A DNA stretch of 64,000 bases from Hydrogenovibrio sp. (GTDB lineage Bacteria; Pseudomonadota; Gammaproteobacteria; Thiomicrospirales; Thiomicrospiraceae). The notes below the pieces were generated by a model. The model was given only the letters and a program-made list of their open reading frames with translations, ran no database searches and had not been told where the DNA came from. The stretch is taken from NCBI GenBank assembly GCA_965140365.1, contig OZ223196.1, one strand, 5' to 3'. The position numbers and the translations under genes were made by a program. This document shows, piece after piece, positions 7,755 through 33,973 of the stretch (the stretch's first letter is position 1; every line of letters starts with the position of its first letter).

Positions 7755-7758
7755 GCAC

Positions 7759-8862: not shown

Positions 8863-8868
8863 TGTTAA

Positions 8869-8927
8869 CTACAAAATTATTTGATAATTACAAAATTAAA
8901 TGAGAATCTACAAAATTAAATGATAAT
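8869..8927 (+). repeat. left-end TnsB-binding-type repeats (3 tightly packed copies)
   Basis: tacaaaattatttgataat (8870-8888), tacaaaattaaatgagaat (8889-8907) and tacaaaattaaatgataat (8909-8927). Confidence 0.75.
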
Positions 8928-9201
8928 GAAGTTTCTTTCAAGGCAGTAAAAGTAACAAACTTCAAATATTCTCTTTTGATTCTTAACTGTATTTTTATGT
9001 ATTAATGGATGTTATTAAACTTTTAGGTAAAGGACTGTCTATAAAGTTGTTTCAAAATAATCTCCTGCCATGAAATTTCTGAATACAAGCAGTTTACTTG
9101 TATTGAACGCAAGCAATTTACTTGTATTGGCGCAAGCGTTTTGCTTGCGAAACGCTTTTTGCCTGTTGATAAGGGTGTTTTAGGTAAAGGAGAAAGTTTG
9201 A

Positions 9202-11022
9202 GTGGCGGGGGCTTTTACTCTTAAAAATTTTGCAGAACAGTGTCAACCTGACAAGTTTTATCGGCTTGATATTATTAGGGGTGTTTCATTCGAAAAAGCT
9301 TACGACCCTACGATGCCCTTCCAGTCAGTCATTGTTAATTTCTCTTGTTATTCCAGTGAATATCAGTCGCTCGACAAAATAAGATCCATTCCAGCTAAAG
9401 ACATTTTCAAGTCTTGCTACATCGACAAAACAGCCAACCTGGCCATTGATGTTGATGTAACTAATCTGATTTTTTTAAAACCTGGCACCGTCTGGAGAAA
9501 TGGCGCCTCAATGTGGGAGTCGACTGAATTAACCAATGTCTGCATTAATCAATCTGAAGCAAGCATGGTTTCTTCTTATAGTGAAAGTAAACTTGGAACT
9601 AAAATGCCCTTCCTCTATGGTAGAAAAAATGTCCAGTTTCTGAAATTTCCCAATTCAAAAGTCAAGGACAAGACGATCACTGTTTTGATCCCTACAACTG
9701 AAATCATCCGTTATTATTTTTCGGGTTCAACCTATTTCACGAGAGAGTTGTTTAATGGTGCGCTGAAAAGCTTTAATAACTCTGGTGAAGCCACTAGACT
9801 TTTCTTTAAATATGAGTTCGATGAAGCTAACGAAAGCGTTTATATTTGGTTAAAAAGGAATTGTTTCGATTCGGATGCTTTCATGATTGCCCGCGGTCTG
9901 GCTGATGAAGTCGCAATGAATGCAATGAGCTATATCTACGCTTCTCTGGTACATGCAAAAACAAATTTTAAGACTAAGGATGGCGACATAATCCCAGAAG
10001 TCTGCCCAAGAACAAGTCTTCCATTCTCCGGAGCAACCAATCTTGAAGTTCTGGGGCAGTGGCTACCACGAAAAGATGGTGAAACGGAATTCACAGAATA
10101 TATGGTCAGAACTATCGAGGATTGCGATCACCCACTACCCTTCAAGAAAATCAGAATTGAATCGGTTGATTCTTATCAATCCAGTGGAGAGGTTAATGAG
10201 GATGAAGATCCGAAGCCATCAAAACCAAGAAGAAAACGTGATGAAGATAGTGATCCTAGGCCACCAAACTATACCGAGGGCGAAAGGCCGACCGATGGTA
10301 TTGCTCCTGAAGAGTTGAAGTTCATGATGCGGCGGTTCAGCCACCTAAAAGATGTTCAGGTTGAAAAGGTCGAAAAGGTATCTGAAAAGGAAAAGCAACG
10401 CTATTATCAGCAAGAAAAAGAATCCAATTCAGATGATGGAAGTACTTTGCCTGGCGACTACCGAAAAGATAACGATCTTCAGCCTTGGAATAATAGAGCG
10501 ATAGATTCTGAACCGATCCCTATCTCCGAAAGGTTGGTCACGGTATCAAATGCAGTGGCAACTGTTCTTGAAAGGGAGAGTAGTTGGTTTGCTGAGGCGT
10601 TACCGGTCAATTGTGTCGATGATACCTTACCTTTTGGGCTTTACAGTTTTGAGCGGCCGGCAGGTAAAAATGCTCGATATGATTGGAATATGGTTGGAGA
10701 AAGAAGCCGGAGAGCCTTGTTTTTGGCTATCTCGAACCAAAGTGGCCAAACGGTTTACTTGTTGGAGATTGAAGGTAAAGGAGAGGTCAGCTTTTCGTTG
10801 TTTCTTTTTAGAGCAGATCAATATGAGGGTCTTGATTATTTCGGCGGTGCCAGGTCGTTGATGTTTGAAATAGCAGATTCTTCAGGTTCTAAGATTAAAG
10901 ATGGGATCCTGGAGGACTTTGTTGTGACTAGTATGAAGCATACCGAAAGCGATAATGATAGCTTTGTGGATCGGTTGCATCGTGCTATTGATGGGGTGTT
11001 TAAAGACGATGAGGATGCTTAA
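9202..11022 (+). CDS. hypothetical protein (orf606): two globular regions joined by a charged low-complexity linker
   Basis: 606-aa ORF with a GTG start and an AAGGAG RBS at 9187-9192. Residues ~320-430 are D/E/K/P-rich (EDEDPKPSKPRRKRDEDSDPRPPNYTEGERP...). I recognise no catalytic motif. Confidence 0.6.
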   Translation: MAGAFTLKNFAEQCQPDKFYRLDIIRGVSFEKAYDPTMPFQSVIVNFSCYSSEYQSLDKIRSIPAKDIFKSCYIDKTANLAIDVDVTNLIFLKPGTVWRNGASMWESTELTNVCINQSEASMVSSYSESKLGTKMPFLYGRKNVQFLKFPNSKVKDKTITVLIPTTEIIRYYFSGSTYFTRELFNGALKSFNNSGEATRLFFKYEFDEANESVYIWLKRNCFDSDAFMIARGLADEVAMNAMSYIYASLVHAKTNFKTKDGDIIPEVCPRTSLPFSGATNLEVLGQWLPRKDGETEFTEYMVRTIEDCDHPLPFKKIRIESVDSYQSSGEVNEDEDPKPSKPRRKRDEDSDPRPPNYTEGERPTDGIAPEELKFMMRRFSHLKDVQVEKVEKVSEKEKQRYYQQEKESNSDDGSTLPGDYRKDNDLQPWNNRAIDSEPIPISERLVTVSNAVATVLERESSWFAEALPVNCVDDTLPFGLYSFERPAGKNARYDWNMVGERSRRALFLAISNQSGQTVYLLEIEGKGEVSFSLFLFRADQYEGLDYFGGARSLMFEIADSSGSKIKDGILEDFVVTSMKHTESDNDSFVDRLHRAIDGVFKDDEDA

Positions 11023-11043
11023 AAATGATTAGAGGGTGGTTTG

Positions 11044-11355
11044 ATGCCGGCTAAAGAGATTGCTATCGCAGCTTTGATTGCAACCAGTGGTGTTACGGAT
11101 GCTGAGTCACCTAAAGAAAAAATCCTATTTGGCGGTGATATGGCTCTAGTCGCTACCGAGCGTTGTGTCGCGGACGGTCGGGATATTTATAAAGGGTTTA
11201 CTCTTATCTCGGATTATCAGAATGGGTACTTTAAGGTTAATTGTCAGATATTGGAAACAACTACGGGTGATTACTATGCTTCCAAGGGAGTTTATTATGA
11301 GAATTCGGAAATGCTTGATCTTCTGATTGATTTATTTGATAGGCGTGTAGATTAA
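11044..11355 (+). CDS. hypothetical small protein (orf104)
   Basis: ORF begins 22 nt after the orf606 stop on the same strand, with a purine-rich stretch agagggtgg upstream. No recognisable motif. Confidence 0.45.
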   Translation: MPAKEIAIAALIATSGVTDAESPKEKILFGGDMALVATERCVADGRDIYKGFTLISDYQNGYFKVNCQILETTTGDYYASKGVYYENSEMLDLLIDLFDRRVD

Positions 11356-11619
11356 TAATTCAAGCAAACGAAAAAGCACACATGTGGCACCCAATAAAGA
11401 GGGACATTCGCTAGTCTGGCTCGGAGAGGTTTTCTGCGCATTTTGATACCAAAAAGGAAGCGGAGTTTCATGCTAGAGAAAGCAGCCAAAATCAGGAAAC
11501 CGAATTGCTGATTCATAACAGGCATGGGAAAAGTGTTGCCTTCAAACTTTAAAATATGGAATTTCTATTGTGTCGAAGTTCCATAGAAGTCATTGGTTGC
11601 TGGAAAGAAAGGAGTTGAT

Positions 11620-12081
11620 ATGTTTGGATTATTTAGGTATTTCTTTGCTTTGGTTGTTTTGAGCTTGGGAGTATTTGGTATATCTGTTGCCGATAATCGG
11701 AATTTCGGCGCTGTTGTTGTAGATGAGGTAACTAGCATTTATGACGGTGATACTTTTCGAGTCAATATCAATGATTGGCTGGCGATTATTGGGTAAAGGA
11801 TTCCTATTCGGGTTAAAGGTATTGATACACCAGAACTTCGAGGTAAATGTTAGAAAGAAAAAGAGTTGGCAAGAAAAGCTAAACGGCACATTGCTCAGCT
11901 GATTCGGGGTGCCAAAATAATTCAATTACAAAATATTGACAGGGGAAAATATTTTCGCATCCTTATGGATGTATCGGTTTGATGGTTTGAGACTTGGGAG
12001 AAAGTCTTATTTTGAATGGTTTTGCTGTAAGGTAATGACGGTGGAGCTAAGGTTGATTGGTGCGAATTAGTAATAAATTAG
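11620..12081 (+). pseudogene. staphylococcal-nuclease (SNase/thermonuclease)-like secreted nuclease, decayed
   Basis: Signal peptide MFGLFRYFFALVVLSLGVFGISVA, then ...IYDGDTFRVNINDW...IPIRVKGIDTPELRGKC*KEKELARKAKRHIAQL...RGKYFRIL. In-frame TAA (11794) and TAG (11851) are present. At least two frameshifts come before DLGESLILNGFAVR and DGGAKVDWC. Confidence 0.7.
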
Positions 12082-12089
12082 GGTTGAGT

Positions 12090-13097
12090 ATGCAAATAAA
12101 TCACGCGATTGTTCATAAGTTACAAAAAGAGCTTCATCAAGAGTCAAATGTTCTTCCTCGCCAAACGCCGCTCGAGGTAAACGAAAACCTCGAGCAGTTA
12201 GTTGGCTACATTATCACTTTGTATAATGAAAAAACCGGGCGAGGTTATGGCAAGTTTTACAGTGATAATGTCAGCTATCCATTTAGCAAATTACTGTCAG
12301 ATTTTCAGAGTGAGGAAGTTGACACTGATTTTATTGCGTTTACCTTCTCTGCTATGGATTTATTAAAGTCCAGAATTGATGGTGAGGGCCTAGCGACTGG
12401 TGGATATATCTTATTTATTGAATACGAACACCGCCAAAGCAAAATTGTTTTAGTTGTATCACTTAAAGACAAAGACGGGTTTATCTTTGATGATAATCTG
12501 GATTTGGATAATCAGCCGCATATTGATTTAGAACATTTGCATGAAATGGCTCGTATTGATACCACTAAGTGGCACTTAGGAAATGAAGGTCGTTATCTTT
12601 CATTTGCGAAAAAACGACAAAATGCAGACAGAAGCTTTAGTCGCTATTTTAGAGAGTTTATTGGGTGTGATGAATTCGAAGAGGAAAATCAACTCACTCA
12701 AGAAGTCGTGAGCGCATGTAAGGCTTATGCAAAGTTTGGTCCCCTAAGTGAAGAGCGCAAGCTTGAGATATTGGAAATTACGCATAACTATATGGAAGAA
12801 ATTTATAAATCGAATGGCGTTTTTAAAGTCCATGACCTAGCAACTAGACTAGATCCGGAAACTCCTGATAGGTTTACCTCTTACATGTATGCTCAAGAAA
12901 TTGAATTATCTGACGGCTTTAAACCTAACAAAAGTGCCTACAGAGGTTTGAAGAGACGTACCATAAGAGATGGAACAATTGCCTTGTCATTTAATGCAAG
13001 CGATTTAGGTAAGTCTGTAACTCATACTGAGGGCGAGGAATTTATTCGTGTTAAACTCTCCCCAGAAAAAATCAAAGAACTCACTGAAGCCAACTAA
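12090..13097 (+). CDS. nucleoid-associated protein NdpA/YejK (NA37) family homologue
   Basis: From the ATG at 12090: MQINHAIVHKLQKE... followed by ...GGYILFIEYEH..IVLVVSLKD, ...MARIDTTKWHLGNEGRYLSFAKKR and ...YFREFIGCDE. The order and spacing of these blocks parallel E. coli YejK as I remember it. The track's TTG at 12057 is probably too far upstream. Confidence 0.7.
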   Translation: MQINHAIVHKLQKELHQESNVLPRQTPLEVNENLEQLVGYIITLYNEKTGRGYGKFYSDNVSYPFSKLLSDFQSEEVDTDFIAFTFSAMDLLKSRIDGEGLATGGYILFIEYEHRQSKIVLVVSLKDKDGFIFDDNLDLDNQPHIDLEHLHEMARIDTTKWHLGNEGRYLSFAKKRQNADRSFSRYFREFIGCDEFEEENQLTQEVVSACKAYAKFGPLSEERKLEILEITHNYMEEIYKSNGVFKVHDLATRLDPETPDRFTSYMYAQEIELSDGFKPNKSAYRGLKRRTIRDGTIALSFNASDLGKSVTHTEGEEFIRVKLSPEKIKELTEAN

Positions 13098-13104
13098 ATA
13101 AATT

Positions 13105-14310
13105 ATGTCTGAGTCAAGCATACAGGTAACTTGTAAAGATGAAATCAAGGCGATTCTTGATGTTATCGCTTGTATGCAAAACCCAGAATATGAAAACGAT
13201 TATGTAGAAGGTGAGGTTTCAAATTCGCCCGAAAATGATAAGAAAATCCAGGCGCTCATTGCTATTAATTCGGATCGTTATTCATTTGGTTCACTAAGTC
13301 GTTGCCCAGAAATATCTATTCAACTGCCTAAAAGACAGGACTGCTTTTTTGCTCAAAATATTAATGATTTATTGGCTAAAGACTTTTCACAAGAAAAGCA
13401 GCCCAGTTGTTGGTATTTACAAGATAAAGGTTTGTTTTTTCCTGATGAAGTAGATCAATGTGGTGATCAACAAGTCAAAAATTATTTGGCGTTAATTGAT
13501 TTAATTGATGTGCTTAAGAGTATTGCTGACCATACTAGCACTAACTCACTCATTTTTCTTCAGGGTGAAAAGTTAGAAATCACTATTGAATACGATGTTG
13601 AAGATTTAACAGAGCTAAGCGAGGTAGATGAATTTAAAAATCACCTTTCGGATAAATTGCATCTAGAGCAGAGAAAAGCAATTTTCAAAAAAGTGTTATT
13701 GGATCAATTATCACGAACGCAAAAGAAAGGCCGTTTTAAAAAACTTATAAACCAGTTTGATCAGATTTATGACCGCTATCTTGAAAATTATAAGGTTTAT
13801 GTATCCGAGTTCTCTGTAGAAAGCGTCATGGATGAGTTGCATGAAAAAAAGATTGAATTCGTCAGTAAGTTTAGCGATACCTTATCAAATATACAAAATC
13901 AATTATTAACAATACCTGTTGCGGTAATTCTTATAGCGAGCCAACTTCAAAAAACAGGATTATCCCTTAAGAATGTTGCAGTATTAATTGCCGGACTGAT
14001 ATTTTTTGGCTTCATGCGGATGTTAGTTTCCAATCAACGCTCCATCCTTGAGTATTTGCATACCGAACTGCAACACACCAGAGAGCAGTTTAAAAAGAAG
14101 TATGATGATTCACTTTCGAATCAGCTTGATAAGGTTTTTAATGACCTTGAGTGTCGATATATCAAACAAAAAAAATTGCTTAAAATTGTAATGAAATCAA
14201 TCTGGTTTATTCTTGTCACTGTAATTATTATGTTTACGATTCAGAGCCAAGATATAAGTTTGGATTCTTTCATAGTTTGGTTTACTAGGTTATTTGATCC
14301 TTGTGAATAA
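13105..14310 (+). CDS. hypothetical membrane protein: ~265-aa soluble N-terminal region plus 3 predicted TM helices
   Basis: Starts 7 nt after the NA37-like gene. Hydrophobic segments are LLTIPVAVILIASQL, VAVLIAGLIFFGFMRMLV and IWFILVTVIIMFTI. No recognisable enzymatic motif. Confidence 0.6.
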   Translation: MSESSIQVTCKDEIKAILDVIACMQNPEYENDYVEGEVSNSPENDKKIQALIAINSDRYSFGSLSRCPEISIQLPKRQDCFFAQNINDLLAKDFSQEKQPSCWYLQDKGLFFPDEVDQCGDQQVKNYLALIDLIDVLKSIADHTSTNSLIFLQGEKLEITIEYDVEDLTELSEVDEFKNHLSDKLHLEQRKAIFKKVLLDQLSRTQKKGRFKKLINQFDQIYDRYLENYKVYVSEFSVESVMDELHEKKIEFVSKFSDTLSNIQNQLLTIPVAVILIASQLQKTGLSLKNVAVLIAGLIFFGFMRMLVSNQRSILEYLHTELQHTREQFKKKYDDSLSNQLDKVFNDLECRYIKQKKLLKIVMKSIWFILVTVIIMFTIQSQDISLDSFIVWFTRLFDPCE

Positions 14311-14363
14311 TCCATAATAGATTATGGATTTGGATCGCAACATATTGGGCATACAGCTCTCAC

Positions 14364-15173
14364 TCACTGCTCCTTTCGCAGTGATTTTGTTCGGAATAGA
14401 TAAATTTGAAACTCTGGTGGGTGTTGAGTTTCAGGGTTTTCCGCAGCTTCTAAGTCTCTCAAGACATATCTTATTAAGGCACGCCGAGTTGTAATACGCC
14501 TCCCAACGGTGCCTTTGAACAACTCATCTCGAATCAGTTTTTCTTGTCCCTCGGTCAATGATGGATGTGGTCGAAACTCAAGTTGGACCTTTTCTTCCCA
14601 TTCGACATCAGTAGGGGTGTCTACACCCTTAGAAGCTGACCCCGCATGCGATATTCGAGCAAGATTGAAATCGCGGTGCTGTTCGGTGAGTTCATCGAAC
14701 CCCCTTACATGCCATCTTCTCCCAGCGAAGACAAAAGCCTTGGGATGGACGACGCGTTCAATGCCCTCTGGATTATTCATAGACCTGTAGAAAATTCTGG
14801 TAGCTGAACACTGATCCATAGCTGAATGAATTACTCGAAATAAGGCGGGATCAACGTTGGTAAAGTCTCTCTGGGTGTCCTCAACTTTGACATGAGTTAC
14901 TTGGTCCTTCACCGACCGAAAATAGGCTTCGATAGTAAGATCGGCGATTTCAGGCTTGAATCGAGCCGTGGGAACATAGCGCCCACGGCCCTGCCCTTTT
15001 AGCGTTTTCGTATTGTACGGGAATGCATCCCGATAGGAAGCCAATACCCGTGAGGCCTGCACGCTGGTTACGCCAAACTTTTCTCTAAGGCGTTGATTAG
15101 TTATCTCGCCTTCGTATGCTAGTAACATCTCTATGAACTCAAACTGCAGTCGCGTTCGGTTGCCCAATGTCAT
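14364..15173 (-). CDS. WYL-domain transcriptional regulator (BrxR/CapW-like)
   Basis: N-terminal wHTH (ITNQRLREKFGVTSVQASRVLASYRD) and a WYL-type core (HPKAFVFAGRRWHVRGFDELTEQHRDFNLARI). It is divergent from jetA. Confidence 0.8.
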   Translation of the reverse strand: MTLGNRTRLQFEFIEMLLAYEGEITNQRLREKFGVTSVQASRVLASYRDAFPYNTKTLKGQGRGRYVPTARFKPEIADLTIEAYFRSVKDQVTHVKVEDTQRDFTNVDPALFRVIHSAMDQCSATRIFYRSMNNPEGIERVVHPKAFVFAGRRWHVRGFDELTEQHRDFNLARISHAGSASKGVDTPTDVEWEEKVQLEFRPHPSLTEGQEKLIRDELFKGTVGRRITTRRALIRYVLRDLEAAENPETQHPPEFQIYLFRTKSLRKEQ

Positions 15174-15193
15174 AACTCTCTACTGGATTTCTA

Positions 15194-15226
15194 TTAACAT
15201 AAGTGTTAATTTAACATTAATGTTAA
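15194..15226. promoter_or_regulatory. twin palindromic operator candidates in the WYL/jetA divergent intergenic region
   Basis: TTAACAtaagTGTTAA (15194-15209), a single t, then TTAACAttaaTGTTAA (15211-15226). The second is a perfect 16-bp palindrome. Both lie within the 81-bp gap between the two start codons. Confidence 0.6.
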
Positions 15227-15254
15227 CTAATAGTCTAGATGGATTAGGTGAACA

Positions 15255-16745
15255 ATGCCTGAAGAACCGGACAACTTGTTTGATCGTTTACCGGAGCACA
15301 TTTTCAGACCGCTTGGGGCTCATGAGCACGCGCGTCGCAATTGGTCGCTTCTAAATCACCTGTATAACGATTTTTTTGCCCCTGAGGCTGACCCACCGGA
15401 AGGTGAAGGCTGGTCACAAAAACGCGTGGTGGCTTCGATTGAGCGATTTTTAGTTCGATGGGATGATGAGCATGAAACTAATTTTGAGCAACGAGGGGCT
15501 CCTGTAAACGTACGCGCACATGATGCTCTTTCAAGCTTTCTGGATAGTGGTTGGCTTACCATTGATCGAGTTGGTTTTACACAATTTGTGATTATGCGCC
15601 CAACTGTCCAAAGCCTCTTTGAGTTGCTCAAAACATTTGCTGAGCAAGGACCCGAGTTTATTGGTGGGCGTGTGCAATCGGTCCGGAATAACTTGCTGCA
15701 GGTAAAGGCAGACCCTGAAAAGAACGCTGCTGTATTTCAAGTTGCTGCCAAAGAATGCTCTGCGCTTCTTCAAATGTTGAACACCACTCGCATGCGGGTT
15801 CGCGAGGCCAGCGAATATTTGCGTACCCAGGAATCAGCAAACCTATTCCTAGAGAAATTCTTTGGAGATTACATCTCTAGTCTCTATATCGGAGATTATT
15901 CAGACCTCTTTTCCCGTAATCATCCACTCGCATCACGCTGGGATATCGTTGATCTCGCTTCCCGAATTACCGAAGAACCAGAAAGTCGGGAGCAATTGCG
16001 TCGATGGTATCGCAAAAACCTACGTTGCCGCTCTAACGAGGAAGCGGATGCATGGATTGAAAGTGATACTTCTCGCGTATTGGCATTGCGCGAAGTCGAC
16101 CGATTGCTCGCACGTCTGAAAGATGCAGTAACCCGCGCAAATGACCAAGCCCTTGGCTATCTCCAGTATAAAGTACGTTCTCAGGGTAATTTCGATATTA
16201 AGACCGATCAGGTCATAAAAGCAGTTGTGCGGGCTGCTGATTCTTGGCCTAACGACGAACCTTTATCTTTACCGATAGGCTGGTCGCAAGGAAGGCTCTT
16301 GAGTGAGGGAGCATTGAAGATGCCGACCAAGAAGCCGAAAAAACGCAAAGGAGCAGTCATCCAGAAACGTCAGTTATCACCAGAGGAAAGAGTTCGACGT
16401 TTGGTCCGCCAAATTATGAATGGCAACCGGGAAGTTTCCGAAACGCGGATTATTCAGTACATTGACCATCACGTAGACCCCGGAGGGGTTCTAGAAAGCA
16501 GTTCTATGGAAGTGGGTAGCATCAACGATCTATGCATCTTGGCAGCATTCACTCGACTGGGGTTGATAGCTGAACGAACGCAAAGGAATACACGCCAAGG
16601 TATTTTACGCCCGAAATTATTTGAGGAACTCAGCGAACATATTGAGATTGAGCTCACAGGTGAACGCTTTGAAAACGAATACTTAGAAGCGCCTGTAGTA
16701 AGGATACGCCGCCGGAAAAAAGGGAGTCCAAACAATGCCTATTAG
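15255..16745 (+). CDS. jetA: Wadjet JetA (MksF/kleisin-like subunit)
   Basis: 496-aa first gene of a four-gene overlapping operon whose sizes (496/212/1140/412 aa) and order match JetABCD. The assignment rests mainly on context. Confidence 0.7.
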   Translation: MPEEPDNLFDRLPEHIFRPLGAHEHARRNWSLLNHLYNDFFAPEADPPEGEGWSQKRVVASIERFLVRWDDEHETNFEQRGAPVNVRAHDALSSFLDSGWLTIDRVGFTQFVIMRPTVQSLFELLKTFAEQGPEFIGGRVQSVRNNLLQVKADPEKNAAVFQVAAKECSALLQMLNTTRMRVREASEYLRTQESANLFLEKFFGDYISSLYIGDYSDLFSRNHPLASRWDIVDLASRITEEPESREQLRRWYRKNLRCRSNEEADAWIESDTSRVLALREVDRLLARLKDAVTRANDQALGYLQYKVRSQGNFDIKTDQVIKAVVRAADSWPNDEPLSLPIGWSQGRLLSEGALKMPTKKPKKRKGAVIQKRQLSPEERVRRLVRQIMNGNREVSETRIIQYIDHHVDPGGVLESSSMEVGSINDLCILAAFTRLGLIAERTQRNTRQGILRPKLFEELSEHIEIELTGERFENEYLEAPVVRIRRRKKGSPNNAY

Positions 16746-17373
16746 TTGGAAACGTATTGCAGAACAAGACGAAGCTTACACTGTTCGGGATTTTCAAAAA
16801 GCGGCGCAACGCCTGATTGTTGACCAAGTATTGTACCAAGCAAACCCGAAGCAGAGAGCAGATTATGATTTGGTGGCGACACATGAAATTGTCTTTGCAG
16901 AAGCGCTGGATCTATTTGGCTGCATGCTTGATCTCAATGTTCAAGAGCGATACGCAGCTTGCGTTCCAACGGTCACCGAGGTGAGCAAGATTCCTCTGAT
17001 GCACACTTTGTTAGCTTTAGTATTGCGAAAACTTTATGACCATCACATGAATAGTGGGTCACTTCACGCAGGCATTGCTGGAGTTAGCTTGCCTGAACTC
17101 GAAGCGGCATTCCAGGAATCAACAGGGCGAGAATTGCCAATGAAGCCCCAATCGGAGCTGCTAGGGATGATGGACGCGATGAAGAGGTGGGGGATAGCTC
17201 GCTTGGTCAGAACTGAGAACTTAGGAGAGGCAGCATGGTTTGCAGAGATTCTTCCTGGAATTCAGAGCCTGATCAACGAGAGAACTCTCGTCATGCTGAA
17301 ATCACATGCCGAATTTCTGTATGAGCCTGATGGTTTGGATGATAAAGAACAACAAAAGGAGAGCTCTTTATGA
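16735..17373 (+). CDS. jetB: Wadjet JetB (MksE-like, DUF4194-type)
   Basis: 212-aa acidic protein. It overlaps jetA by 11 nt and jetC by 4 nt. Confidence 0.7.
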   Translation: MPISWKRIAEQDEAYTVRDFQKAAQRLIVDQVLYQANPKQRADYDLVATHEIVFAEALDLFGCMLDLNVQERYAACVPTVTEVSKIPLMHTLLALVLRKLYDHHMNSGSLHAGIAGVSLPELEAAFQESTGRELPMKPQSELLGMMDAMKRWGIARLVRTENLGEAAWFAEILPGIQSLINERTLVMLKSHAEFLYEPDGLDDKEQQKESSL

Positions 17374-20300
17374 AACAGCTCAAACGCATCTCATTGGTTC
17401 AATTCTATCTCCATGAAGCAGTTGATATCGAGGTAGAAGGAGCAACTGCCTTCTTGGGACCAAATGGCTCAGGTAAATCGTCGACACTTGATGCTATACA
17501 GATCGCTATGCTTGGAGGCAATCAGCAGTATATCCGGTTTAATACTCAGTCAGTATCAGCGAAGCAGCGGCGTAGCTTAGCTGGATACTGCCTTGGTATG
17601 CTTCGCAATCCAGAGAAAGATAGTGAAGTGATTGGACGGGCGCGTGACGAGGCTAGGACCTACATCGTTTTAGTCTTTGGCAACGATATGGAGACTGAAT
17701 GGGTTTCTGCTGGAATCTGCATTGAAGCTGATTCAGAAACTGATGAGCATGAGGTTAAAGGCCTTTTTGTACTTCCGGGGATAGCTCTGAAGGCTGACGA
17801 CTGTATTGTTTATGATGGTAGTGATCAGCGCCCTATTCCATTTGCAGACTTTCGAGAAAATGCACGCGAGCAAGCTCGGAAGAGCGGGCGAACTCCTATC
17901 TTTACGGATAAGTCGAGTGAATATGTCCAGGAGTTGCTATATTCGCTGAATGGCGAAAGAATGCCCAATTCCCGACAGTTTATGTCGTCTTTTGTGAAGT
18001 CGATGACTCTGAAGAATGTCGATTCGATTGATCAATTTGTCCGAGATTACGTCGTTGAATCTAATCCAGTTGATATTGCGACGTTTCGCAAGCAGGTCGA
18101 GCAATTTATCGCTTTACGTGATCTGATCATGAGAACAAAGGCAAGAATTTCACAGCTTGAAGGTATCATTACTGACTTTGATAGAGCACAGCAGGCAGAA
18201 TGTCGAATCGCAACTCTTGAAGCCATAAAGGCGGTCTTCAATGTCGAATGGTTAGGAGAGAAGATTGACAATATTGAAACCCAGATTGATACACTCAAAT
18301 TCCAGATAAAAACTGCAGAAGGCCTTGCAGCTTATGCGAAGGAACAGCGAGATCTCAAACAAGATGAAATTACCCAACTGAAGGTTCGCTTGGAGAGCGA
18401 CCACAAAGAGCAACTTCGGCAACGTCTTGAAGATCAGATTAGCTCCCAGCGCGAACTAATCACTGCCTACCAACATCCGGAGATATCTCGGGCCAACCGC
18501 CTTATCAGTTCGTTAAGAGAATTGATCGACGAACCGAGTTTTTCTGCTATTCGCAGTCTTATGAGTACAGTGGTTGATGCGTTGGTAGAGGCTCGGGGAA
18601 GCGAAGACCCGGGAAGCGCGTTGAGCAAATCAATTTGGAAGCACGACGGAAACCTTTCACAAATTCGCATCTTTTCCCAGTCTAATCTGACTACGATCCA
18701 AAAAAAGCAAAATGAACTGACCGAGGAACGTGATGCAATTCGACGTCGGATTTCAGCGGCAGCTCAAACAGGACGCTTGTTGAATGATGGTGCAGCGCGG
18801 TTACTAGATATACTTAATCACGCCGGTATGGAGGCTAAGCCTCTGTCGGCGTTACTACGTATTTCGGATCCAAGCTGGGCTCCGGCATTGGAGGCTTATT
18901 TAGGTGGCGACCGTGATGCTCTGATTATCACGGAAGGAAATACCCGTGAGGCGGTCAAACTCTTACGCCAGGCGAGGCAGAGTGGCATTCAGGTAAGCGG
19001 TGCGGCAATCATCCAGCCATTTCATCTCCGCAATATTGACACTTCCGCTAAAGGTGAGGAATTCGCATTGGGTGTTTTTGAGACAGATGACGAAACGGCG
19101 CGCCGTTTCGTTTGGCAGAAGTTCGGAAGCATGCGTTTAGTCGATACGGAACTGGAGCTCGAAACTCATCCAAGAGCAATTACCCGTGACGGAATGCTGA
19201 GTCAGGGAGGTTTGACCAAATCCATCCGTATCGTACCTATTAGTGATCTTCGTATAGGTAAGGAAGTCCAGGACACATCTCTGTTAACGAGACATGCATC
19301 GGAGCTCCAGGGAGAGCTGGAACAGTTTGAAAAGCACAGGAAACGTGTGGAAGGGCTCGAACAAGCTCTTTTTACCAACGCCAACGATGACGGACAAGGT
19401 GTCACTGAGAAACTTGCTGAAGCTAATGAGGTGATTAACCTGGCAAACCAGAAACTCAAGAGTCTAGATGTTTCACACCTAGACGAGTTGAAGTCTCTTC
19501 TTAATACTGCTGTCTCGAAACATTCAGAGTATGACAAACAATATACGGAGCACGATCGACTTGCGGCAGGATTAAAAGAGCAAATAGGGCAATGTTGGGA
19601 ACGGAAAAAGCAACAGGAACGACAGTTCCCAGCAATACGCCAAGCTGAACATGAAGCTGTAACCAACGCTTTGGTCAATAAAGAGTGGCTGGACAGTATG
19701 AAAGACGAGATTGAGCGCGCCGAAACCAGCTATGATTTGCGACTTAAAGAGGTGGATAGGAAACTTGACTATCACACTCCTCGCTTGAGGAATGCCGAGG
19801 AAAAAGCCTCTCTTGAGCTTGCCCGTTATGTTCAGGACGAGCGTCTAGATGTTCAAGTTGCAGATATGGAATGGCATGAACGTTACGACTGGGTTCTAGA
19901 GGAGAAAATGAAGCTTTTTGATACGGAATTGCATCGGTACGAAGAGGAAGCTGAGCTAGCCCGTCAGGCGTCTGAGGAAACGCTGCGCTCGGACATCGCC
20001 ATGTCTCTCCATGATAGATTCAAAGAAATGGAGTTGGAGCGCCGGGAGAGAAACAAAATACTTGAGTCTTGTCCTTCATTCACTGGCGGAGAACGTTACA
20101 AGTTTACGGCTAAGGTTGTGCCACAATATGAAGCATTGGTGCGATATATCAACCAAATTGCTCAAGACGACAACAATTTTTCTTTGTTTGCAGAAAATCC
20201 CGATGAGATTAATGAAACACTTCGCGATCTCGTAGAAGCCGCGGCTGACTCAGGTAACGCAAGTGGGGTTCTAGATTATCGACAGTTTTATACTTTTGAT

Positions 20301-20792
20301 TTAGACATCCTAGTCGATGGTAAAAGAGTCGATCGAATGAGTAACCGGCAAGGGGCGGGATCCAATGGTGAACATATAGCACCTATGTATGTTGCTGCGG
20401 GCGCAGCTCTTGCAAAGGCTTATCGGCTCCACAGTAACAAAGGGAAGCAACGCGGTATTGGACTTATTTGCCTTGATGAGGCTTTTCATGGCATGGACAC
20501 AATCAACGCTATAGCTACAGCACGTTTCCTACAAAGCATTGGCTTGCAGCTCATTATGGCGGGGCCGGAGCTTGAACGCACTAAGCTGGCACCTGTAACT
20601 CAGACTATCTATGACCTGGATCGAGAAGGTTTGGATCTACAAATGGAACGGACCAAGTTCAAGGAGGCAGCCAACAAGCTGATGGTAAGTGATATGCCTG
20701 ACGAGAACCCTGAAATTATGAAAGGTGCGTATCAGCAACTCGGACTTGAACAGCCAACAGAATATGCACTTTCCAATGATGGTGGACAATGA
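17370..20792 (+). CDS. jetC: Wadjet JetC (SMC/MksB-like ATPase)
   Basis: 1140 aa with N-terminal Walker A FLGPNGSGKSSTLDAIQ, long coiled-coil-like E/K/L/Q-rich middle, a C-terminal signature-like GAGSNGE and Walker B/D-loop GLICLDEAFHGMD. Confidence 0.88.
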   Translation: MKQLKRISLVQFYLHEAVDIEVEGATAFLGPNGSGKSSTLDAIQIAMLGGNQQYIRFNTQSVSAKQRRSLAGYCLGMLRNPEKDSEVIGRARDEARTYIVLVFGNDMETEWVSAGICIEADSETDEHEVKGLFVLPGIALKADDCIVYDGSDQRPIPFADFRENAREQARKSGRTPIFTDKSSEYVQELLYSLNGERMPNSRQFMSSFVKSMTLKNVDSIDQFVRDYVVESNPVDIATFRKQVEQFIALRDLIMRTKARISQLEGIITDFDRAQQAECRIATLEAIKAVFNVEWLGEKIDNIETQIDTLKFQIKTAEGLAAYAKEQRDLKQDEITQLKVRLESDHKEQLRQRLEDQISSQRELITAYQHPEISRANRLISSLRELIDEPSFSAIRSLMSTVVDALVEARGSEDPGSALSKSIWKHDGNLSQIRIFSQSNLTTIQKKQNELTEERDAIRRRISAAAQTGRLLNDGAARLLDILNHAGMEAKPLSALLRISDPSWAPALEAYLGGDRDALIITEGNTREAVKLLRQARQSGIQVSGAAIIQPFHLRNIDTSAKGEEFALGVFETDDETARRFVWQKFGSMRLVDTELELETHPRAITRDGMLSQGGLTKSIRIVPISDLRIGKEVQDTSLLTRHASELQGELEQFEKHRKRVEGLEQALFTNANDDGQGVTEKLAEANEVINLANQKLKSLDVSHLDELKSLLNTAVSKHSEYDKQYTEHDRLAAGLKEQIGQCWERKKQQERQFPAIRQAEHEAVTNALVNKEWLDSMKDEIERAETSYDLRLKEVDRKLDYHTPRLRNAEEKASLELARYVQDERLDVQVADMEWHERYDWVLEEKMKLFDTELHRYEEEAELARQASEETLRSDIAMSLHDRFKEMELERRERNKILESCPSFTGGERYKFTAKVVPQYEALVRYINQIAQDDNNFSLFAENPDEINETLRDLVEAAADSGNASGVLDYRQFYTFDLDILVDGKRVDRMSNRQGAGSNGEHIAPMYVAAGAALAKAYRLHSNKGKQRGIGLICLDEAFHGMDTINAIATARFLQSIGLQLIMAGPELERTKLAPVTQTIYDLDREGLDLQMERTKFKEAANKLMVSDMPDENPEIMKGAYQQLGLEQPTEYALSNDGGQ

Positions 20793-22027
20793 TGTTGGGC
20801 TCAGGAGGGGATGCATGTGATAAGAGTATGCGTCGTCTTATCAAAAAGGCTGCGCGTGCTATTTTCGCAGATGGCGCACTGGAACCATCAGTGGAAAAGT
20901 TTTCGGTGAGTTTGCCAGCAACGAAATCGAGCTTGCAGGAGTACTATCGTCTTGAGCGCTTTGCAGATAGAGAGGAGTATCACGCGCGACTTCAGATCTA
21001 CTCAAAGGTAAAAGCGATAGCGGTAGATTGGGACCTCGGTGCAGGAGATAGAGGCCAGCTTGCTAGAGTAACGCTACTCGACCCTAAAGCAGTAGTGAAT
21101 ATCCTTGGTGAAGAATTACCTTGGGAAGTCGCATCGCGGGCCATTGCAAAAATAGAATCTGTCGCTAGAGAAGGGCTTCCTAATGTTGACCGGATTGTTG
21201 ATGACTGGCGTCGTGGGAAGGCCCCTGCCGGAGTGGCAGCCGAGCGTGCGAATCAACTGGTCGATAGCATGAATATCATTGATGCGGCGCAGAAACTTTC
21301 TGAAGGTGGACAAGATGTTTTGCTCCGGAAGCTGAGCGCCAGACTATTCCACGATAGTAAAAGGATAGAAGCGCTCTCTCGTCAGCTTGCTTTTCTTCTT
21401 GGAGAACCTACAGAAAGCGAACAAGAGGATGTTTTTGCAAGGTTGGGTTTGGTAAAACATCCTCAACCTATGCTTCTGAGTGGTCCAACGGGTTGCAAAA
21501 TTCAAATTGATGGGGAGGCCATTCCACTGGCGTACCCTTATCTAGGCGTCAGGCCGGACAATATTAGAGGTCTGATTTGTTCAAGTGATCGTATTCGGCG
21601 TGTTCTTACCATTGAGAATCTTGCTAGCTTCAACGAAGCAGCTGACAGCTCAGAAAACGCGAAGGATTTGCTGATCGTTTATCTTGCTGGTAACCCTACA
21701 CCATCTTTTCTTGCTGCATACAATCGAATACTTGGATCGTTAGAACCCACGAAAATACTGCACTGGGGCGACATTGACCTAGGAGGGTTTAGGATTGCGG
21801 CAAGGTTGGCCGATAGCGTCAAAACTATGGGCTACACTCTTGATCTTTGGCGAATGAATCCCTTAGAGGTAGTTACAGGCCAGCAAAAAACCGCTCCACA
21901 AAAGAAAATCGAAGAAGTATCAACAATATGTAAGAACTACGGATGGAGCAAGGAAGCCGAAGGACTGCAGAATTCCCCAGTTTTTCAGGAGCAAGAATTC
22001 ATCGACTGGGTTTCTCCGAATGATTAA
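20789..22027 (+). CDS. jetD: Wadjet JetD (Toprim nuclease subunit)
   Basis: 412 aa. The C-terminal Toprim-type acidic motifs are VLTIENLASFNE and LHWGDIDLGGFRI. It overlaps the jetC stop by 4 nt. Confidence 0.82.
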   Translation: MMLGSGGDACDKSMRRLIKKAARAIFADGALEPSVEKFSVSLPATKSSLQEYYRLERFADREEYHARLQIYSKVKAIAVDWDLGAGDRGQLARVTLLDPKAVVNILGEELPWEVASRAIAKIESVAREGLPNVDRIVDDWRRGKAPAGVAAERANQLVDSMNIIDAAQKLSEGGQDVLLRKLSARLFHDSKRIEALSRQLAFLLGEPTESEQEDVFARLGLVKHPQPMLLSGPTGCKIQIDGEAIPLAYPYLGVRPDNIRGLICSSDRIRRVLTIENLASFNEAADSSENAKDLLIVYLAGNPTPSFLAAYNRILGSLEPTKILHWGDIDLGGFRIAARLADSVKTMGYTLDLWRMNPLEVVTGQQKTAPQKKIEEVSTICKNYGWSKEAEGLQNSPVFQEQEFIDWVSPND

Positions 22028-22222
22028 ATGGGAGGGTGTGAAGATTCTGAGCACTCTCGATTGATCCCCTTTATATTGTTGTTTCATTCAAGATAGATTG
22101 AACAGTAAGAATGTTCAATCCTTCCCAAAAACCAGTTCGGCTGCTTCATGTTTAAACTTAATAGAAAATGTACGTCTTTGTCTTTTCGTGGAATACCTTA
22201 TTGTTGGTTTCATCTAGATATT

Positions 22223-22507
22223 TTAATCAAGTGCCCGACTCCTCTCCTCAAAATAATAAGCCAAGTATCGCCGTACCTGCTCCGGCCTGATCTTTTTCTG
22301 CAATCGCTTATCGAAAAAATTAACAATATTCGATTTCTCTTTATCACAAGCAGAATATTTGTACTTTTGAATTCGAAAGAATAACGCATCCTCCACCCAA
22401 TACGGAAACTCCAAATAAGGCGTTTTAATCATATAGCTAAACGTATTAGTGACTTGACAGGCCTTCACAAAGATTTCCGGCCAGCCCTGCAATAAATGAT
22501 AAAGCAT
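22223..22507 (-). pseudogene. relic 3' fragment of a second, diverged tniQ/tnsD-like gene
   Basis: The 94-aa translation ...LLQGWPEIFVKACQVTNTFSYMIKTPYLEFPYWVEDALFFRIQKYKYSACDKEKSNIVNFFDKRLQKKIRPEQVRRYLAYYF aligns colinearly with the C-terminus of the intact TniQ (29214..30347: ...LLQDWPEGFIKACKATNTSTHLIKTPYLEFPFWVTDTLFFHIKQYKYFACDEEKSNIVNFFKRRLKKKIKPTQIQRYLEYYF). Confidence 0.85.
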
Positions 22508-22509
22508 TG

Positions 22510-22725
22510 TGACCCTCCCTTAAAATAGGGGCATATTAAATTAGAGTTCTCCGGTTTATACTGAGCAAAACGGAGAGCATCATGAAAAAGTCACGTTATA
22601 GCGAAACACAGATCGTCAAGATTCTTAAAGAGGTCGAAGCCGGACGGCTGGTCAAAGAGGTTTGTCGGGATTATGGTATCTCGGACGCCACCTACTACAA
22701 CTGGAAAGCGATTAACTCCAGGTAA
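22510..22725 (+). mobile_element. IS3-family insertion sequence remnant (left end plus truncated orfA)
   Basis: TGACCCTCCC... terminus abuts the truncated tniQ relic. A 47-codon ORF (22582-22725), MKKSRYSETQIVKILKEVEAGRLVKEVCRDYGISDATYYNWKA..., matches the HTH N-terminus of IS3-family OrfA, and homology ends abruptly. Confidence 0.7.
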
Positions 22726-23185
22726 AGTATTTTTGAAAAGGCTAAGGTCTTTTCTTCAAAACCAACAACATTCCTTTTTTATTGCTTCCGGAAGTGACGC
22801 CAGCATATTAAATCTGTTTAGTGAGTATCACGAACCTTTTTTTAAAGCGGCTATTCAGTTAAAGGTTGATGTTAATGAAGAGCTGAAGCATCTGAATTGC
22901 TACTAATTTAGTAAGTTCACTGGAGGAATTGCAAAAATACACCTCCGTTATGAAAATTTTTACTACTCAAAAAAAATGGCGACAATACTCTATTCGGTTA
23001 TGTCAAAGTTTATTAAAAATTAATAGCTTTGGACATTAGAATTATGTACGAAATAACCTAGTAGAGCCCGGAGAAAAGAAATTAATGCTCCCAAATACTT
23101 TTATAATTAAATGGTGCGATTTGAAAAGTTTTGAAGATGAGTGATTTAAAGTCTGGTTTTTTAAAAGGCATATAAGGTTAATTTT

Positions 23186-24649
23186 ATGAGAAGCATCGGA
23201 GCCGTAATATTTGATTTAGATGATACTTTAGTAGCTACTAGCACACTGGAGGACTATAGAGTAAAAGGCGATAGGCAGGGCTTAGATGCAAATATACATA
23301 AATCTGTATTATTTAAGCCAGTGAAAGGAATGCTTCAAGCAATAAAAGACCGTGGTTTACCTTTAGGACTGGTCACTAACTCTCCTAGATGGTATGCAGA
23401 AAAGTTATTAAGGTATCATGAGATTGATATTTTTGATGCAGTGGTTTGCTATGACGATGTTGGTCAGGTTGGCATGAAACCATCACCTAATGGAATTAAG
23501 TTAGCTTTAGAAAAATTAGGTTTTGAGCATGGAGATAGGGCTGTCTATATAGGAGACCACGATAATGACTTCGTGGCCGCTTACGAAGCTGGAATAAAAC
23601 CCCTGGCCCCTTCATGGGCAAAAAGAAATCCAATTTCAAAAATACCGGCGGTGATTATTAGCTCTTCTACTCTCATTGATAATTTAAGCGATTATGAAGA
23701 ATTAAAGCTGATTGCCGATAGAACAGCGAAGCACAAGGCGTTTGATTTCCCTAAGAAACAAATGAATTTCATGCCGTTAAATGAAGATGGTAATCTTGTG
23801 CCAATTGAAAAAAATAAAATCAAGCTTATTACCTTTGGAAGGTACTTCAGCCAAAAATCAGCCTTAACCGCAAAATTACATGAAAGTCATCAGTTATCAA
23901 AGGATATTGTTGCAAAGGAAGAAAGTGAGACATATGTTATTCCTCAATATTATGTGAATTTAATTGCAAGGGTGGTAGAGCAATTACCATTGTATTTGTT
24001 CAGGGGAACGGGAAAAGTTTTTGATATAGTTACAGTTGTACCAGCCAAAAAAGAAAAGAATCCTAGGCTTGAAAATATGCTCAAAAGGGTTGCTAAATTG
24101 AATAGCTCAGAATCGATTTTTATTGAGGATTTATTTGAGTTTTCGAAAGGTGCACCGAGTTTAAAAACTTTGGGAGCAAAAGCAAATCGAGAAAGAGCAC
24201 TTCACGAAACGCTAAGCATAAAACAAAAGCATATTGGTTTGGTGAATGGAAAATCTATTCTGATTATTGACGATGTTATTACAACTGGCGCTACATTTAG
24301 CCATATATTTTCTCTTCTTGAAGGGGCAGGGGTAAGTTTTACCTTCGGAGCATGTTTAGCAAAGACGGTTAGTACATATGAAGACGCTCCTATTTGTCCG
24401 AAGTGCGGCAGGCAGATGCGAGTTAGAAAGCGCAAAGATGGATCTGGTATTCATTTTTATGGTTGTACTGGCTATTTTGAAGCAGAAAATAAGTGTAGTC
24501 ACACAGAGTCCATAAAGGTTAAAGATTGTCCCAGTTGTGGAAGGAAGATGGCCAAACAATATAACTCAAAAGAAAACAAGGTGTTTCTTGGGTGCGAGGG
24601 ATTTAGGGACAAAACAAACCCGTGTTCATATGTTGAGAGTTATAGGTAA
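23186..24649 (+). CDS. fusion protein: HAD-superfamily phosphatase + ComF-like phosphoribosyltransferase (PRTase) + two topoisomerase-type C4 zinc ribbons
   Basis: HAD motifs are VIFDLDDTLV (I), LVTNS (II), KPSP (III) and IGDHDNDFVAA (IV). The PRPP-binding loop is SILIIDDVITTGATF. The zinc ribbons are CPKCGRQM...FYGCTGYFEAENKCSH and CPSCGRKM...FLGCEGFRDKTNPCSY. Confidence 0.8.
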   Translation: MRSIGAVIFDLDDTLVATSTLEDYRVKGDRQGLDANIHKSVLFKPVKGMLQAIKDRGLPLGLVTNSPRWYAEKLLRYHEIDIFDAVVCYDDVGQVGMKPSPNGIKLALEKLGFEHGDRAVYIGDHDNDFVAAYEAGIKPLAPSWAKRNPISKIPAVIISSSTLIDNLSDYEELKLIADRTAKHKAFDFPKKQMNFMPLNEDGNLVPIEKNKIKLITFGRYFSQKSALTAKLHESHQLSKDIVAKEESETYVIPQYYVNLIARVVEQLPLYLFRGTGKVFDIVTVVPAKKEKNPRLENMLKRVAKLNSSESIFIEDLFEFSKGAPSLKTLGAKANRERALHETLSIKQKHIGLVNGKSILIIDDVITTGATFSHIFSLLEGAGVSFTFGACLAKTVSTYEDAPICPKCGRQMRVRKRKDGSGIHFYGCTGYFEAENKCSHTESIKVKDCPSCGRKMAKQYNSKENKVFLGCEGFRDKTNPCSYVESYR

Positions 24650-24651
24650 AT

Positions 24652-25543
24652 ATGGCTTCAAAAAATACGGAATCCCTCCTCGCATTGCGGTTTTTGAAGG
24701 GCGTTGGGAAAAAGTATCTAAATCAGATATCTTTATCGGCTGAGATAGCAGGCATTTCAGTAGAAAGCGCTTTTTTTTCCAGTAAATTGGGGCAAGGTAA
24801 ATTTGATGCTACTGAAGTGCAAGAGGCTTATGAGAAAGCTAAAGAGCAGATACGTATAGCAGAGGAAATGGGGCACAACATTATATCTAAGCTTGATGAT
24901 GTGTATCCAGATTCACTGAAAGAGTTGTCAGATGCTCCACCTGTATTATTTTGTGCAGGAAATTTATCTATCCTAAAAGAAAATATTGTCACTGTTATTG
25001 GAACGAGGTCTCCTACCGAACATGGGAAATATATTGCAAAAAAAGTGACTGATTGGTTTGTAGAAAATAACTGGGTAATTGCTAGTGGGCTTGCGAAAGG
25101 GATAGACACAATTGCGCATAAATCATGCTTAGAACGAGGCGGAAAGACAATTTCAGTGTTAGCTCATGGTTTGGAAAAAATATATCCAGCAGAAAACAGA
25201 GCGTTAGCTGAAGAAATTATTTCGTCAAATGGACTTTTAGTAACGGAATACGGGTATAACTCGTATGTTGGCAAATCCAATTTTGTTTGAGAGAGATCGT
25301 ATCCAAGCTGCCCTAGCAAAAGCAGTTCTGCTTGTTCAGTCCGGTTTAAATGGTGGGAGTTTGCATGCCTCAAGATCGATAATTAATTATGGTAGATATT
25401 TAGTTGTAGTTGGGCAGTCAAAAACCGATGTTGCTAATCAAGAACCAAATATTATGGCTAATGAATTACTGATAAATGGGGAAAAAAGTCAAAGGTTAAA
25501 AGGCCTCTTTATGGTGAGTACGGCGTTGAGTCTCAATATTTGA
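24652..25543 (+). pseudogene. DprA/Smf-like Rossmann-fold protein, split by a +1 frameshift near 25280-25290
   Basis: Frame 1 (24652-25290) reads ...YPDSLKELSDAPPVLFCAGN...VTVIGTRSPTEHGKYIAKKV...ASGLAKGIDTIAHKSCLERGGKTISVLAHGLEKIYPAENRALAEEI...VTEY...KSNFV*. Frame 2 (to 25543) continues the family pattern: ERDRIQAALAKAVLLVQSGLNGGSLHASR...GRYLVVVGQ. It starts 2 nt after the PRTase stop. Confidence 0.75.
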
Positions 25544-25618
25544 ATAAAGAGCTTTTTTAGGGAATAGAGTTTAGGTTGCGAGGAAGATATTTCAAAGTAA
25601 AAACTTATTATTTATTGT

Positions 25619-27096: not shown

Positions 27097-27533
27097 AGTT
27101 TTTTAGACCTTTAAAATTAAAAATTTGAAGGATTTTACTTTAACAAAAAACGTACTGCAACTCACTATGTCTTTATCGACTAATTTTCTGTTTTTATTAA
27201 AAATTTAAATATTGTTTTGAGCATATTGCACAAATCTTATTGAGTTTTTTTAAATTAAATTTAGAGTTAATCCATAAAGGTAAAAATATCGTTAGGGATG
27301 TAAAGCTTTTGGCCTGCGATATGTAAATGTTGGGTCTGAAAAGTTTTTTTACTGCAAGTGATTATTGTGTAGTATGAGGTGTTAGAGAAAAAGGTATTTT
27401 CCCATTATGTCGGTTTCAGGATTATTGTTCTTCTTAAGAATTGTTCGGGGTGGAACTATTAAGGATTTATTTTTAGGGGAGGAGTTACGGGATTTTAAAT
27501 GGAATTCATAAAATTACAAAATAAGTTAACTCC

Positions 27534-29027: not shown

Positions 29028-29213
29028 AAATTAGACCTCCAGATCCCTATTGTCACACTGCGCTATTTATAATATTACTATAATGTTGAGAGGATGTTTT
29101 TCATGTCTAAAATTAAGTTATTATAAATCAACGTGTTATATTGAATTAAACATGTTTTTTATAATATTGGTTGTCACAGTTTTTCTTTAGAGCTGGCGTT
29201 AAGAAAAGCTGTT

Positions 29214-30347: not shown

Positions 30348-30349
30348 AT

Positions 30350-33859: not shown

Positions 33860-33966
33860 TTATTATTGTAGGATTTTTGGTTTCTGTACTATCTTTTAAC
33901 TCAGATTATCAATTAATTTTGTAGAAAATGGCATTTTTACTCCCGATATTATCATTTAATTTTGTA
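33852..33966 (-). repeat. right-end TnsB-binding-type repeats (3 spaced copies)
   Basis: Read on the minus strand: tacaaaattaaatgataat (33966-33948), tacaaaattaattgataat (33923-33905) and the weaker tacaataataaatgagaat (33870-33852). Confidence 0.7.
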
Positions 33967-33973
33967 TTTGACA

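Follow-up and report, generated by a model that had tools for sequence, protein, structure and literature searches.

The window analysed here is a stretch of 64,000 nucleotides (nt) from Hydrogenovibrio sp. (contig OZ223196.1), in which an intact Tn7-like transposon carries two adjacent genes, ORF1 (gene A) and ORF2 (gene B), on the + strand. ORF1 encodes a protein with the fold of the nucleoid-associated protein (NAP) YejK, and ORF2 encodes a protein, here called the effector, whose N-terminal part is large and soluble and which has three transmembrane (TM) segments. We propose that together they are probably an anti-phage module. An earlier account of this DNA, made from its letters alone and referred to below as the sequence-only reading, had already drawn attention to the pair. 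The two open reading frames that it called, with their positions, strand and 7-nt gap, are borne out, and the public annotation of Hydrogenovibrio thermophilus contains both proteins exactly as called.

ORF1 starts with the ATG at 12090, with a Shine-Dalgarno-like AGGG 5' of the start, and ends with the TAA at 13095-13097; the spacer ATAAATT then leads to the ATG of ORF2 at 13105. The pair has a GC content of 0.356, lower than that of the whole element (0.409) and of the chromosome on either side (0.51), in agreement with the earlier description of the genes as AT-rich cargo. The features of the locus are collected in Table 1.

Table 1. Features of the gene pair, its proteins and the surrounding element, in window positions.
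Feature	Position	Strand	Details
ORF1 (gene A), NA37/YejK-fold nucleoid-associated protein, proposed sensor (PagA/DS-1A-like)	12090..13097	+	335 amino acids (aa)
ORF2 (gene B), putative membrane effector (DS-1B/PagB-like)	13105..14310	+	401 aa
Effector N-terminal acidic alpha/beta and helical soluble domain, proposed NAP-binding 'DNA-mimic' domain	13105..13752	+	residues 1-216
Effector TM hairpin, segments 263-283 and 284-310	13891..14034	+	hydropathy, conservation; conserved polar Q264, P271, Q280, N290, N310, Q311
Effector third TM helix, residues ~357-381	14173..14247	+	model and hydropathy; after basic helical hairpin 311-356 with conserved R351, Q355
Terminator-like hairpin and T-run 3' of gene B, possible operon end	14364..14384	+	consensus scan; site number not above shuffle expectation
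Tn7-like transposon, intact	8863..33973	.	25.1 kb; inside a comM/yifB-like Mg-chelatase gene; terminal TnsB-type repeats, target-site duplication
Split comM/yifB-type gene, N-part	7759 to near 8862
Split comM/yifB-type gene, C-part	near 33974 to 34407
Left-end cargo gene	9202-11022		606 aa
Left-end cargo gene	11041-11355		104 aa
Putative staphylococcal nuclease (SNase)-like remnant	11743-11949		one frame, two in-frame stops
WYL-domain gene	14364-15173	-
JetABCD	15255-22027		complete type I Wadjet (PADLOC)
Shosta-like ShosT/ShosA pair	23186-25290		ShosA 212 aa, PADLOC E=1.9e-61
SocA/Panacea-like gene and overlapping gene	25619-27096	-	257 aa and 235 aa
ORF beside TniQ	27534-29027	-	497 aa
TnsA/TnsB/TniB (TnsC-like)/TniQ	29214-33859	-	Pfam

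The two proteins

The assignment of the first protein to the NA37 family, suggested by the sequence-only reading, is confirmed by a match to Pfam PF04245 with E=1.9e-61 over positions 1-311 of 325, close to the whole profile, and all four of the sequence blocks quoted for this protein are found in the ORF1 translation. Among PHROG families it matches phrog_3767 (E=6e-72). The housekeeping YejK/NdpA of E. coli has the same full-length fold, as seen in the full-length match of ORF1 to the solved YejK structure (PDB 9BE2, E=6.7e-26). ORF1 differs from the housekeeping protein, however, in three respects: its score against the NCBIfam YejK model, 183 bits, is below the equivalog cut-off of 341; it is low-GC cargo inside a Tn7-like element; and it is always paired with an effector gene. 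That score, taken with the Tn7-like carriage and the low GC content, speaks against ORF1 being a standalone core chromosomal YejK.

ORF2 has no match to any Pfam family. By hydropathy, residues 263-283, 284-310 and 357-385 stand out as hydrophobic, and an AlphaFold2 (AF2) model built on 68 family members (mean pLDDT, predicted local distance difference test, 93; pTM, predicted template modelling score, 0.78) consists of an N-terminal alpha/beta domain (about residues 1-170) that is joined by a helical connector to three very long helices (218-279, 288-332 and 335-380), onto which the three hydrophobic segments fall. The sequence-only reading was thus correct both on the three TM segments and on the extensive soluble part at the N-terminus. 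This region is acidic, with a net charge of -16 for residues 1-283 and -13 for the whole protein, and modelled separately its N-domain (residues 1-216) reaches a pLDDT of 94.8 and a pTM of 0.88. Foldseek returned no PDB match at E<=1e-3 for either the full-length or the N-domain model, and a PDB sequence-profile search with ORF2 was empty.

The most conserved effector positions (F236, S237, Q264, P271, Q280, N290, F300, N310, Q311, R351 and Q355) sit in and around the membrane helices; P271 and N310 are invariant in the alignment. ORF2 keeps all the strongly conserved positions except V231, which is L in the family. Conservation of a polar face in this way would be expected of TM helices that line a channel or form an oligomerisation surface. 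The positive-inside pattern, with a basic hairpin at 311-356 between TM2 and TM3 and a short loop at 280-287 between TM1 and TM2, suggests a topology in which the N-domain and the helical hairpin are cytoplasmic and a short C-tail is periplasmic. The acidic N-domain, the motif NYxLYVSEFS...IQNQLLxxP and the conserved Q, N and P residues of the TM helices can serve as diagnostic features of the effector.

Conservation of the pair and its relation to DS-1 and PANGU

A word-indexed protein search with ORF2 gave two proteins only, and the family becomes visible only with an exhaustive HMMER search, made over 1.84 billion cluster representatives (50% identity). This returned 1011 representatives at E<=1e-3, of which 152 also pass E<=1e-30; the matches are almost all 380-420 aa long. 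Three hydrophobic segments are the modal layout across the family, and of 144 representatives 98.6% carry a net negative charge (median -10) on the soluble region before the first segment. Among PHROG families, ORF2 itself matches phrog_5023 (E=2.9e-56).

The coupling of the two genes is strict. Scanning one genome per species with a pattern from a 14-sequence alignment identified 42 loci, in Gamma- and Betaproteobacteria and in two Bacteroidota-type metagenome-assembled genomes. Two of these abut a contig end and a third retains no more than a 41-residue remnant, which leaves 39 testable loci that have an ORF2-family ORF with upstream DNA. In all 39 the ORF immediately before it, in the same orientation, is an NA37 ORF, which is full length in 33 and truncated or split in six (L006, L012, L021, L031, L034, L036). 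The two proteins have also diverged together: across 33 pairs their distance matrices are correlated with r=0.883, a value reached in 0 of 2000 Mantel permutations, and in this mirror-tree set the nearest relatives of the window pair are identical for both genes. Co-conservation of the two genes, which the sequence-only reading had put forward as a check, is therefore borne out. The closest relative, on a metagenomic contig, has 63% and 52% identity to the two proteins and the same arrangement with an 8-nt gap.

In most of the six loci with a broken NAP gene the effector ORF is at or near full length. One of the six, L006 of Methylomonas fluvii, has NA37 fragments at 945-1571 and 7457-7810, about 5.9 kb apart, as if split by an insertion.

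The pair is also found on plasmids and temperate phages, as in Sinorhizobium phage phi2LM21, where p68, a 'nucleoid-associated protein', is followed by p67. The 130 immediate neighbours at 37 related loci include subunits of type I and III restriction-modification (RM) systems, AbiEii, AbiU, PrrC, SoFic, several PDC candidates and six integrases.

One of the nearest systems with a recorded phenotype is DS-1 of E. coli (working id D390; DefensePredictor, DeWeirdt et al., Science 2026, PMC13092281). It comprises DS-1A (WP_000355468.1), a 391-aa protein annotated there as NA37/YejK, and, 2 nt later, the 404-aa DS-1B (WP_000150292.1), with a TM region annotated at residues 269-404 (Table S8, PMC13092281). 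DS-1 was defensive against phage in E. coli in replicated plaque assays, and the YejK domain is among the domains newly validated in defence (PMC13092281). Like DS-1, the window pair has the NA37 gene first and, a few nt later, a partner of about 400 aa with a C-terminal TM region, and both are carried on mobile DNA, DS-1 being on a lambdoid phage-plasmid.

Both components are also homologous. In NCBIfam, ORF2 matches the DS1_2_antiphage model (NF053869) with E=9.7e-34 and 117 bits (cut-off 315) over positions 29-336 of 337, and ORF1 matches DS1_1_antiphage (NF053868, 'nucleoid-associated anti-phage protein') with E=3.5e-22 and 78.9 bits (cut-off 330). By BLASTP, ORF2 is 30% identical to DS-1B over 179 aa (E=4e-16) and ORF1 20% identical to DS-1A (E=4e-6), and the annotated TM region of DS-1B aligns with that of ORF2 (263-385). 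Profiles built from the relatives of the window pair find DS-1B with E=5e-29 over positions 61-364 of 391, and DS-1A with E=3e-30. Effector representatives drawn from across the HMMER matches hit DS1_2 only, at 80-118 bits against the cut-off of 315, while their partner NAPs score 188-265 bits with the YejK model (cut-off 341) and 60-94 bits with DS1_1 (cut-off 330). Like ORF1, the NAPs of the clade have no N-terminal zinc ribbon of the DS-1A type. Because both DS-1 components have homologues here but the scores stay under the equivalog cut-offs, the window clade is, on sequence grounds, a related subfamily of DS-1 and not its equivalog. The two also differ in that DS-1B has less hydrophobic TM segments and a less acidic N-terminal part (overall charge -4, as compared with -13 in ORF2), and in their carriers, an E. 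coli prophage versus a Tn7-like element of Hydrogenovibrio.

On the phage-plasmid of E. coli MS 69-1 (NZ_CP146678.1, 2452-4837), DS-1A lies between a lambda-type lysis cassette and antiterminator Q, and DS-1B is present as two overlapping fragments, probably owing to a frameshift.

A second system of this architecture is type II PANGU (Pag2A and Pag2B, PANGU-Ecu; Li et al., bioRxiv 10.64898/2026.04.06.716658), in which one bicistronic operon encodes a YejK-like NAP and a TM effector. Both of its genes are required, neither gene alone nor the pair is toxic, and protection, scored by phage plaque assays, is by abortive infection; the system is also linked to defence genes. In Pag2B an acidic DNA-mimic ('DMK') domain at the N-terminus precedes a TM domain at the C-terminus, and Pag2A, which leaves the nucleoid on T4 infection, binds the DMK domain with a dissociation constant (KD) of 19 nM. 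The preprint leaves the activation step of Pag2B and the membrane killing open. The window pair resembles this system in its bicistronic operon with a YejK-like NAP, in the acidic N-domain (-16) and C-terminal TM helices of its effector, where DNA mimicry is putative, and in its linkage to defence: its co-cargo includes a type I Wadjet and a Shosta-like pair, and its relatives lie near RM, AbiE, AbiU, PrrC and SoFic genes. In type I PANGU (Pag1A with the GRel toxSAS Pag1B) a NAP freed from the degraded nucleoid likewise binds a DNA-mimic domain of the effector, and escape maps to the phage nuclease EndoII (bioRxiv 10.64898/2026.04.06.716658). The effector of that type is, however, a soluble alarmone synthetase, and ORF2 has no such domain.

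A different use of an NA37 paralogue is seen on the integrative and conjugative element (ICE) PAPI-1 of P. aeruginosa, where NdpA2, together with the ribbon-helix-helix (RHH) protein TprA, relieves MvaT silencing and raises transfer more than 1000-fold (PMC8565334). This too is a mobile-element NA37 protein working with an adjacent partner gene, but the partner is an RHH transcription factor, the role is regulation of ICE transfer, and there is no membrane effector.

In light of these systems, the view of the sequence-only reading that the pair is undescribed, with no named system combining NA37 and a membrane protein, does not hold: DS-1 is in NCBIfam, where both window proteins match it, and type II PANGU is defined by this very combination. 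What is new is a divergent, large clade, an effector that is structurally unmatched, and the Tn7 carriage; the kind of system is known (DS-1 and type II PANGU, 2025-2026). The logic that had been put forward, a DNA-binding sensor with a membrane effector acting by abortive infection, is that demonstrated for the related systems, and would apply to the window pair by analogy. The comparison that had been made with Kiwa stands as an analogy but not as homology. Kiwa (the TM protein KwaA with KwaB) is a two-gene defence system in which a membrane component is coupled to a DNA-associated one; the likeness is broad, gene order and families differ, and neither window protein matches a PADLOC Kiwa model.

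Proposed function and alternatives

We consider it likely that the pair is a mobile module of the DS-1 and type II PANGU kind, acting against phage by abortive infection, on account of its homology to a validated system, the strict coupling of its genes and its defence and mobile context. Our own analysis contributes domain composition, homology, co-occurrence, co-divergence and mobile or defence carriage, while the phenotype, the finding that neither gene suffices alone, the relocalisation of the NAP and its nanomolar affinity for the N-domain come from the literature on relatives. By analogy, we infer that the window clade behaves as the tested relatives do, and likewise how its membrane domain would kill.

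In the model that we propose, the YejK-like NAP encoded by gene A would be parked on chromosomal DNA in the uninfected cell, and the product of gene B would be an inner-membrane protein whose acidic cytoplasmic N-domain offers a docking site for free NAP. A phage that degrades or disrupts the host nucleoid would release the NAP, and its binding to the N-domain would switch on the three-helix membrane domain with its conserved polar Q/N face. The likely outcome would be permeabilisation or depolarisation of the membrane, leaving an infected cell that no longer supports phage growth. The co-divergence of the two proteins (r=0.88) is compatible with such binding but is not proof of it.

Several observations weigh against this interpretation. 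The window pair falls far under the DS-1 equivalog cut-offs, its identity to DS-1B and DS-1A is low, and the anti-phage phenotype on record is that of the E. coli system. ORF1 also scores nearer to canonical YejK and is without the N-terminal zinc ribbon of DS-1A, as can be seen from the DS-1A alignments, which begin at its residue ~66-110, and from ORF1 itself, which begins with the NA37 domain. The putative DNA-mimic N-domain of ORF2 has no structural fold match in the PDB, and ORF1 is itself acidic, with a net charge of -15. A simple scan found no sigma-70-like promoter 5' of the pair. Defence genes are, by raw count, frequent but not universal neighbours of the related loci. Finally, type II PANGU is linked to DS-1 and to the window clade by architecture, and the preprint does not cite DS-1; the window clade could equally be the 'cluster 3' of that preprint, in which a conserved hypothetical protein lies downstream of the NAP, instead of its cluster 2.

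With a low probability, the large clade, with its phrog_5023 effectors and NAPs nearer to canonical YejK than to DS-1A, may depart from DS-1 and type II PANGU in mechanism. The trigger might then be displacement of the NAP by, for example, DNA-mimic or nucleoid-remodelling proteins of the phage, not bulk degradation of the genome, and the polar-faced three-helix domain might be a new type of channel gated by the NAP.

Readings outside immunity also deserve consideration. A two-gene, toxin-like layout on a mobile element beside Wadjet, an anti-plasmid system, and a membrane protein whose conserved polar TM residues make it a plausible toxin, would suit an addiction, stabilisation or anti-plasmid module, in which the NAP restrains a membrane toxin that fires on loss of the element or when plasmid DNA titrates the NAP. 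We regard this as improbable, given that the tested relatives are non-toxic singly or paired and that both genes are needed for protection, which argues for the NAP as an activator and not an antitoxin; moreover, DS-1 and PANGU were both scored by phage plaque assays. Even less probable, in our view, is a role for the NAP as a chromatin regulator of the mobile element, acting against H-NS or on transfer or transposition with the membrane protein as an accessory that has no part in immunity. NdpA2 on PAPI-1 provides a precedent (PMC8565334), the pair is transposon cargo, and ORF1 is nearer to canonical YejK than to DS-1A. The partner, however, has TM segments and homology to the validated DS-1B and is not a DNA-binding regulator, and the presence of the pair on phages, plasmids, chromosomal islands and a Tn7-like element argues against a role bound to the transfer machinery of any one carrier.

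We give the least credence of all to the possibility that the pair is a non-functional or decaying remnant, inactive in this strain. The adjoining SNase-like gene is decayed, the NAP ORF is truncated or split in 6 of the 39 testable loci, E. coli MS 69-1 has a split DS-1B, and the promoter scan upstream of the pair was negative. Against this, neither window ORF is disrupted and each reaches the full length of its family, the conserved effector positions are kept with the single exception of V231, and the closest relative retains the arrangement.

If the pair is indeed a defence module, the logic of a NAP sensor joined to a membrane effector reaches beyond the tested E. coli examples, to a deep-sea vent chemolithoautotroph and to a new type of carrier, as Tn7-like cargo. 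Annotation resources miss the clade: there is no Pfam model for the effector, the NCBIfam scores are below cut-off, and in PADLOC v2 ORF1 has no match and ORF2 only sub-threshold matches to unrelated models, since the DS-1/PANGU kind post-dates that database. A family profile, together with the diagnostic features given above, would therefore improve the annotation of defence islands. As the killing mechanism of the effector is open even in the published systems, the high-confidence model of this clade could offer a starting point.

The transposon and neighbouring genes

The carrier is a Tn7-like element, as had been proposed from the sequence alone, and the defence island next to Wadjet is likewise confirmed, by the transposase genes, the target-site duplication and the complete JetABCD. 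The 5-bp duplication GCTGT lies at 8858-8862 and 33974-33978, and TGT is present at both termini. The TnsB-type repeats are 19-20 nt long, with three tandem 20-nt copies at 8869-8927 and inverted copies at 33852-33966.

Of the two genes said to flank the pair, the WYL gene is clearly present, while the decayed nuclease has weak support. The remnant holds the motifs DGDTFRV...IRVKGIDTPE, and a comparison with a staphylococcal nuclease query gave a tblastn E=0.012; Pfam and PADLOC found nothing in this region. The WYL gene points towards ORF2 and away from jetA (15255), from which it is separated by an 81-nt intergenic region, and this arrangement suggests Wadjet, and not the NA37 pair, as its regulatory target. 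We rejected it as a third component on its orientation and because WYL is absent from the families that recur as neighbours at the 37 related loci.

The 606-aa and 104-aa ORFs, with which the cargo opens on the left side of the element, have no match in Pfam, NCBIfam, PADLOC or PHROGs and are candidates for another cargo or defence function. The 497-aa ORF beside TniQ matches nothing in any library. The SocA/Panacea-like gene is a weak assignment (22.8 bits, as against a Pfam gathering score of 25.7) and overlaps a 235-aa gene with no family match; the two may form a toxin-antitoxin-like pair. In the Shosta-like pair, the 487-aa ShosT-like protein, encoded ahead of ShosA, is unusual in that an HAD hydrolase domain at its N-terminus is fused to a PRTase region and to a zinc ribbon of the Top1 type; the pair may represent an architectural variant of Shosta.

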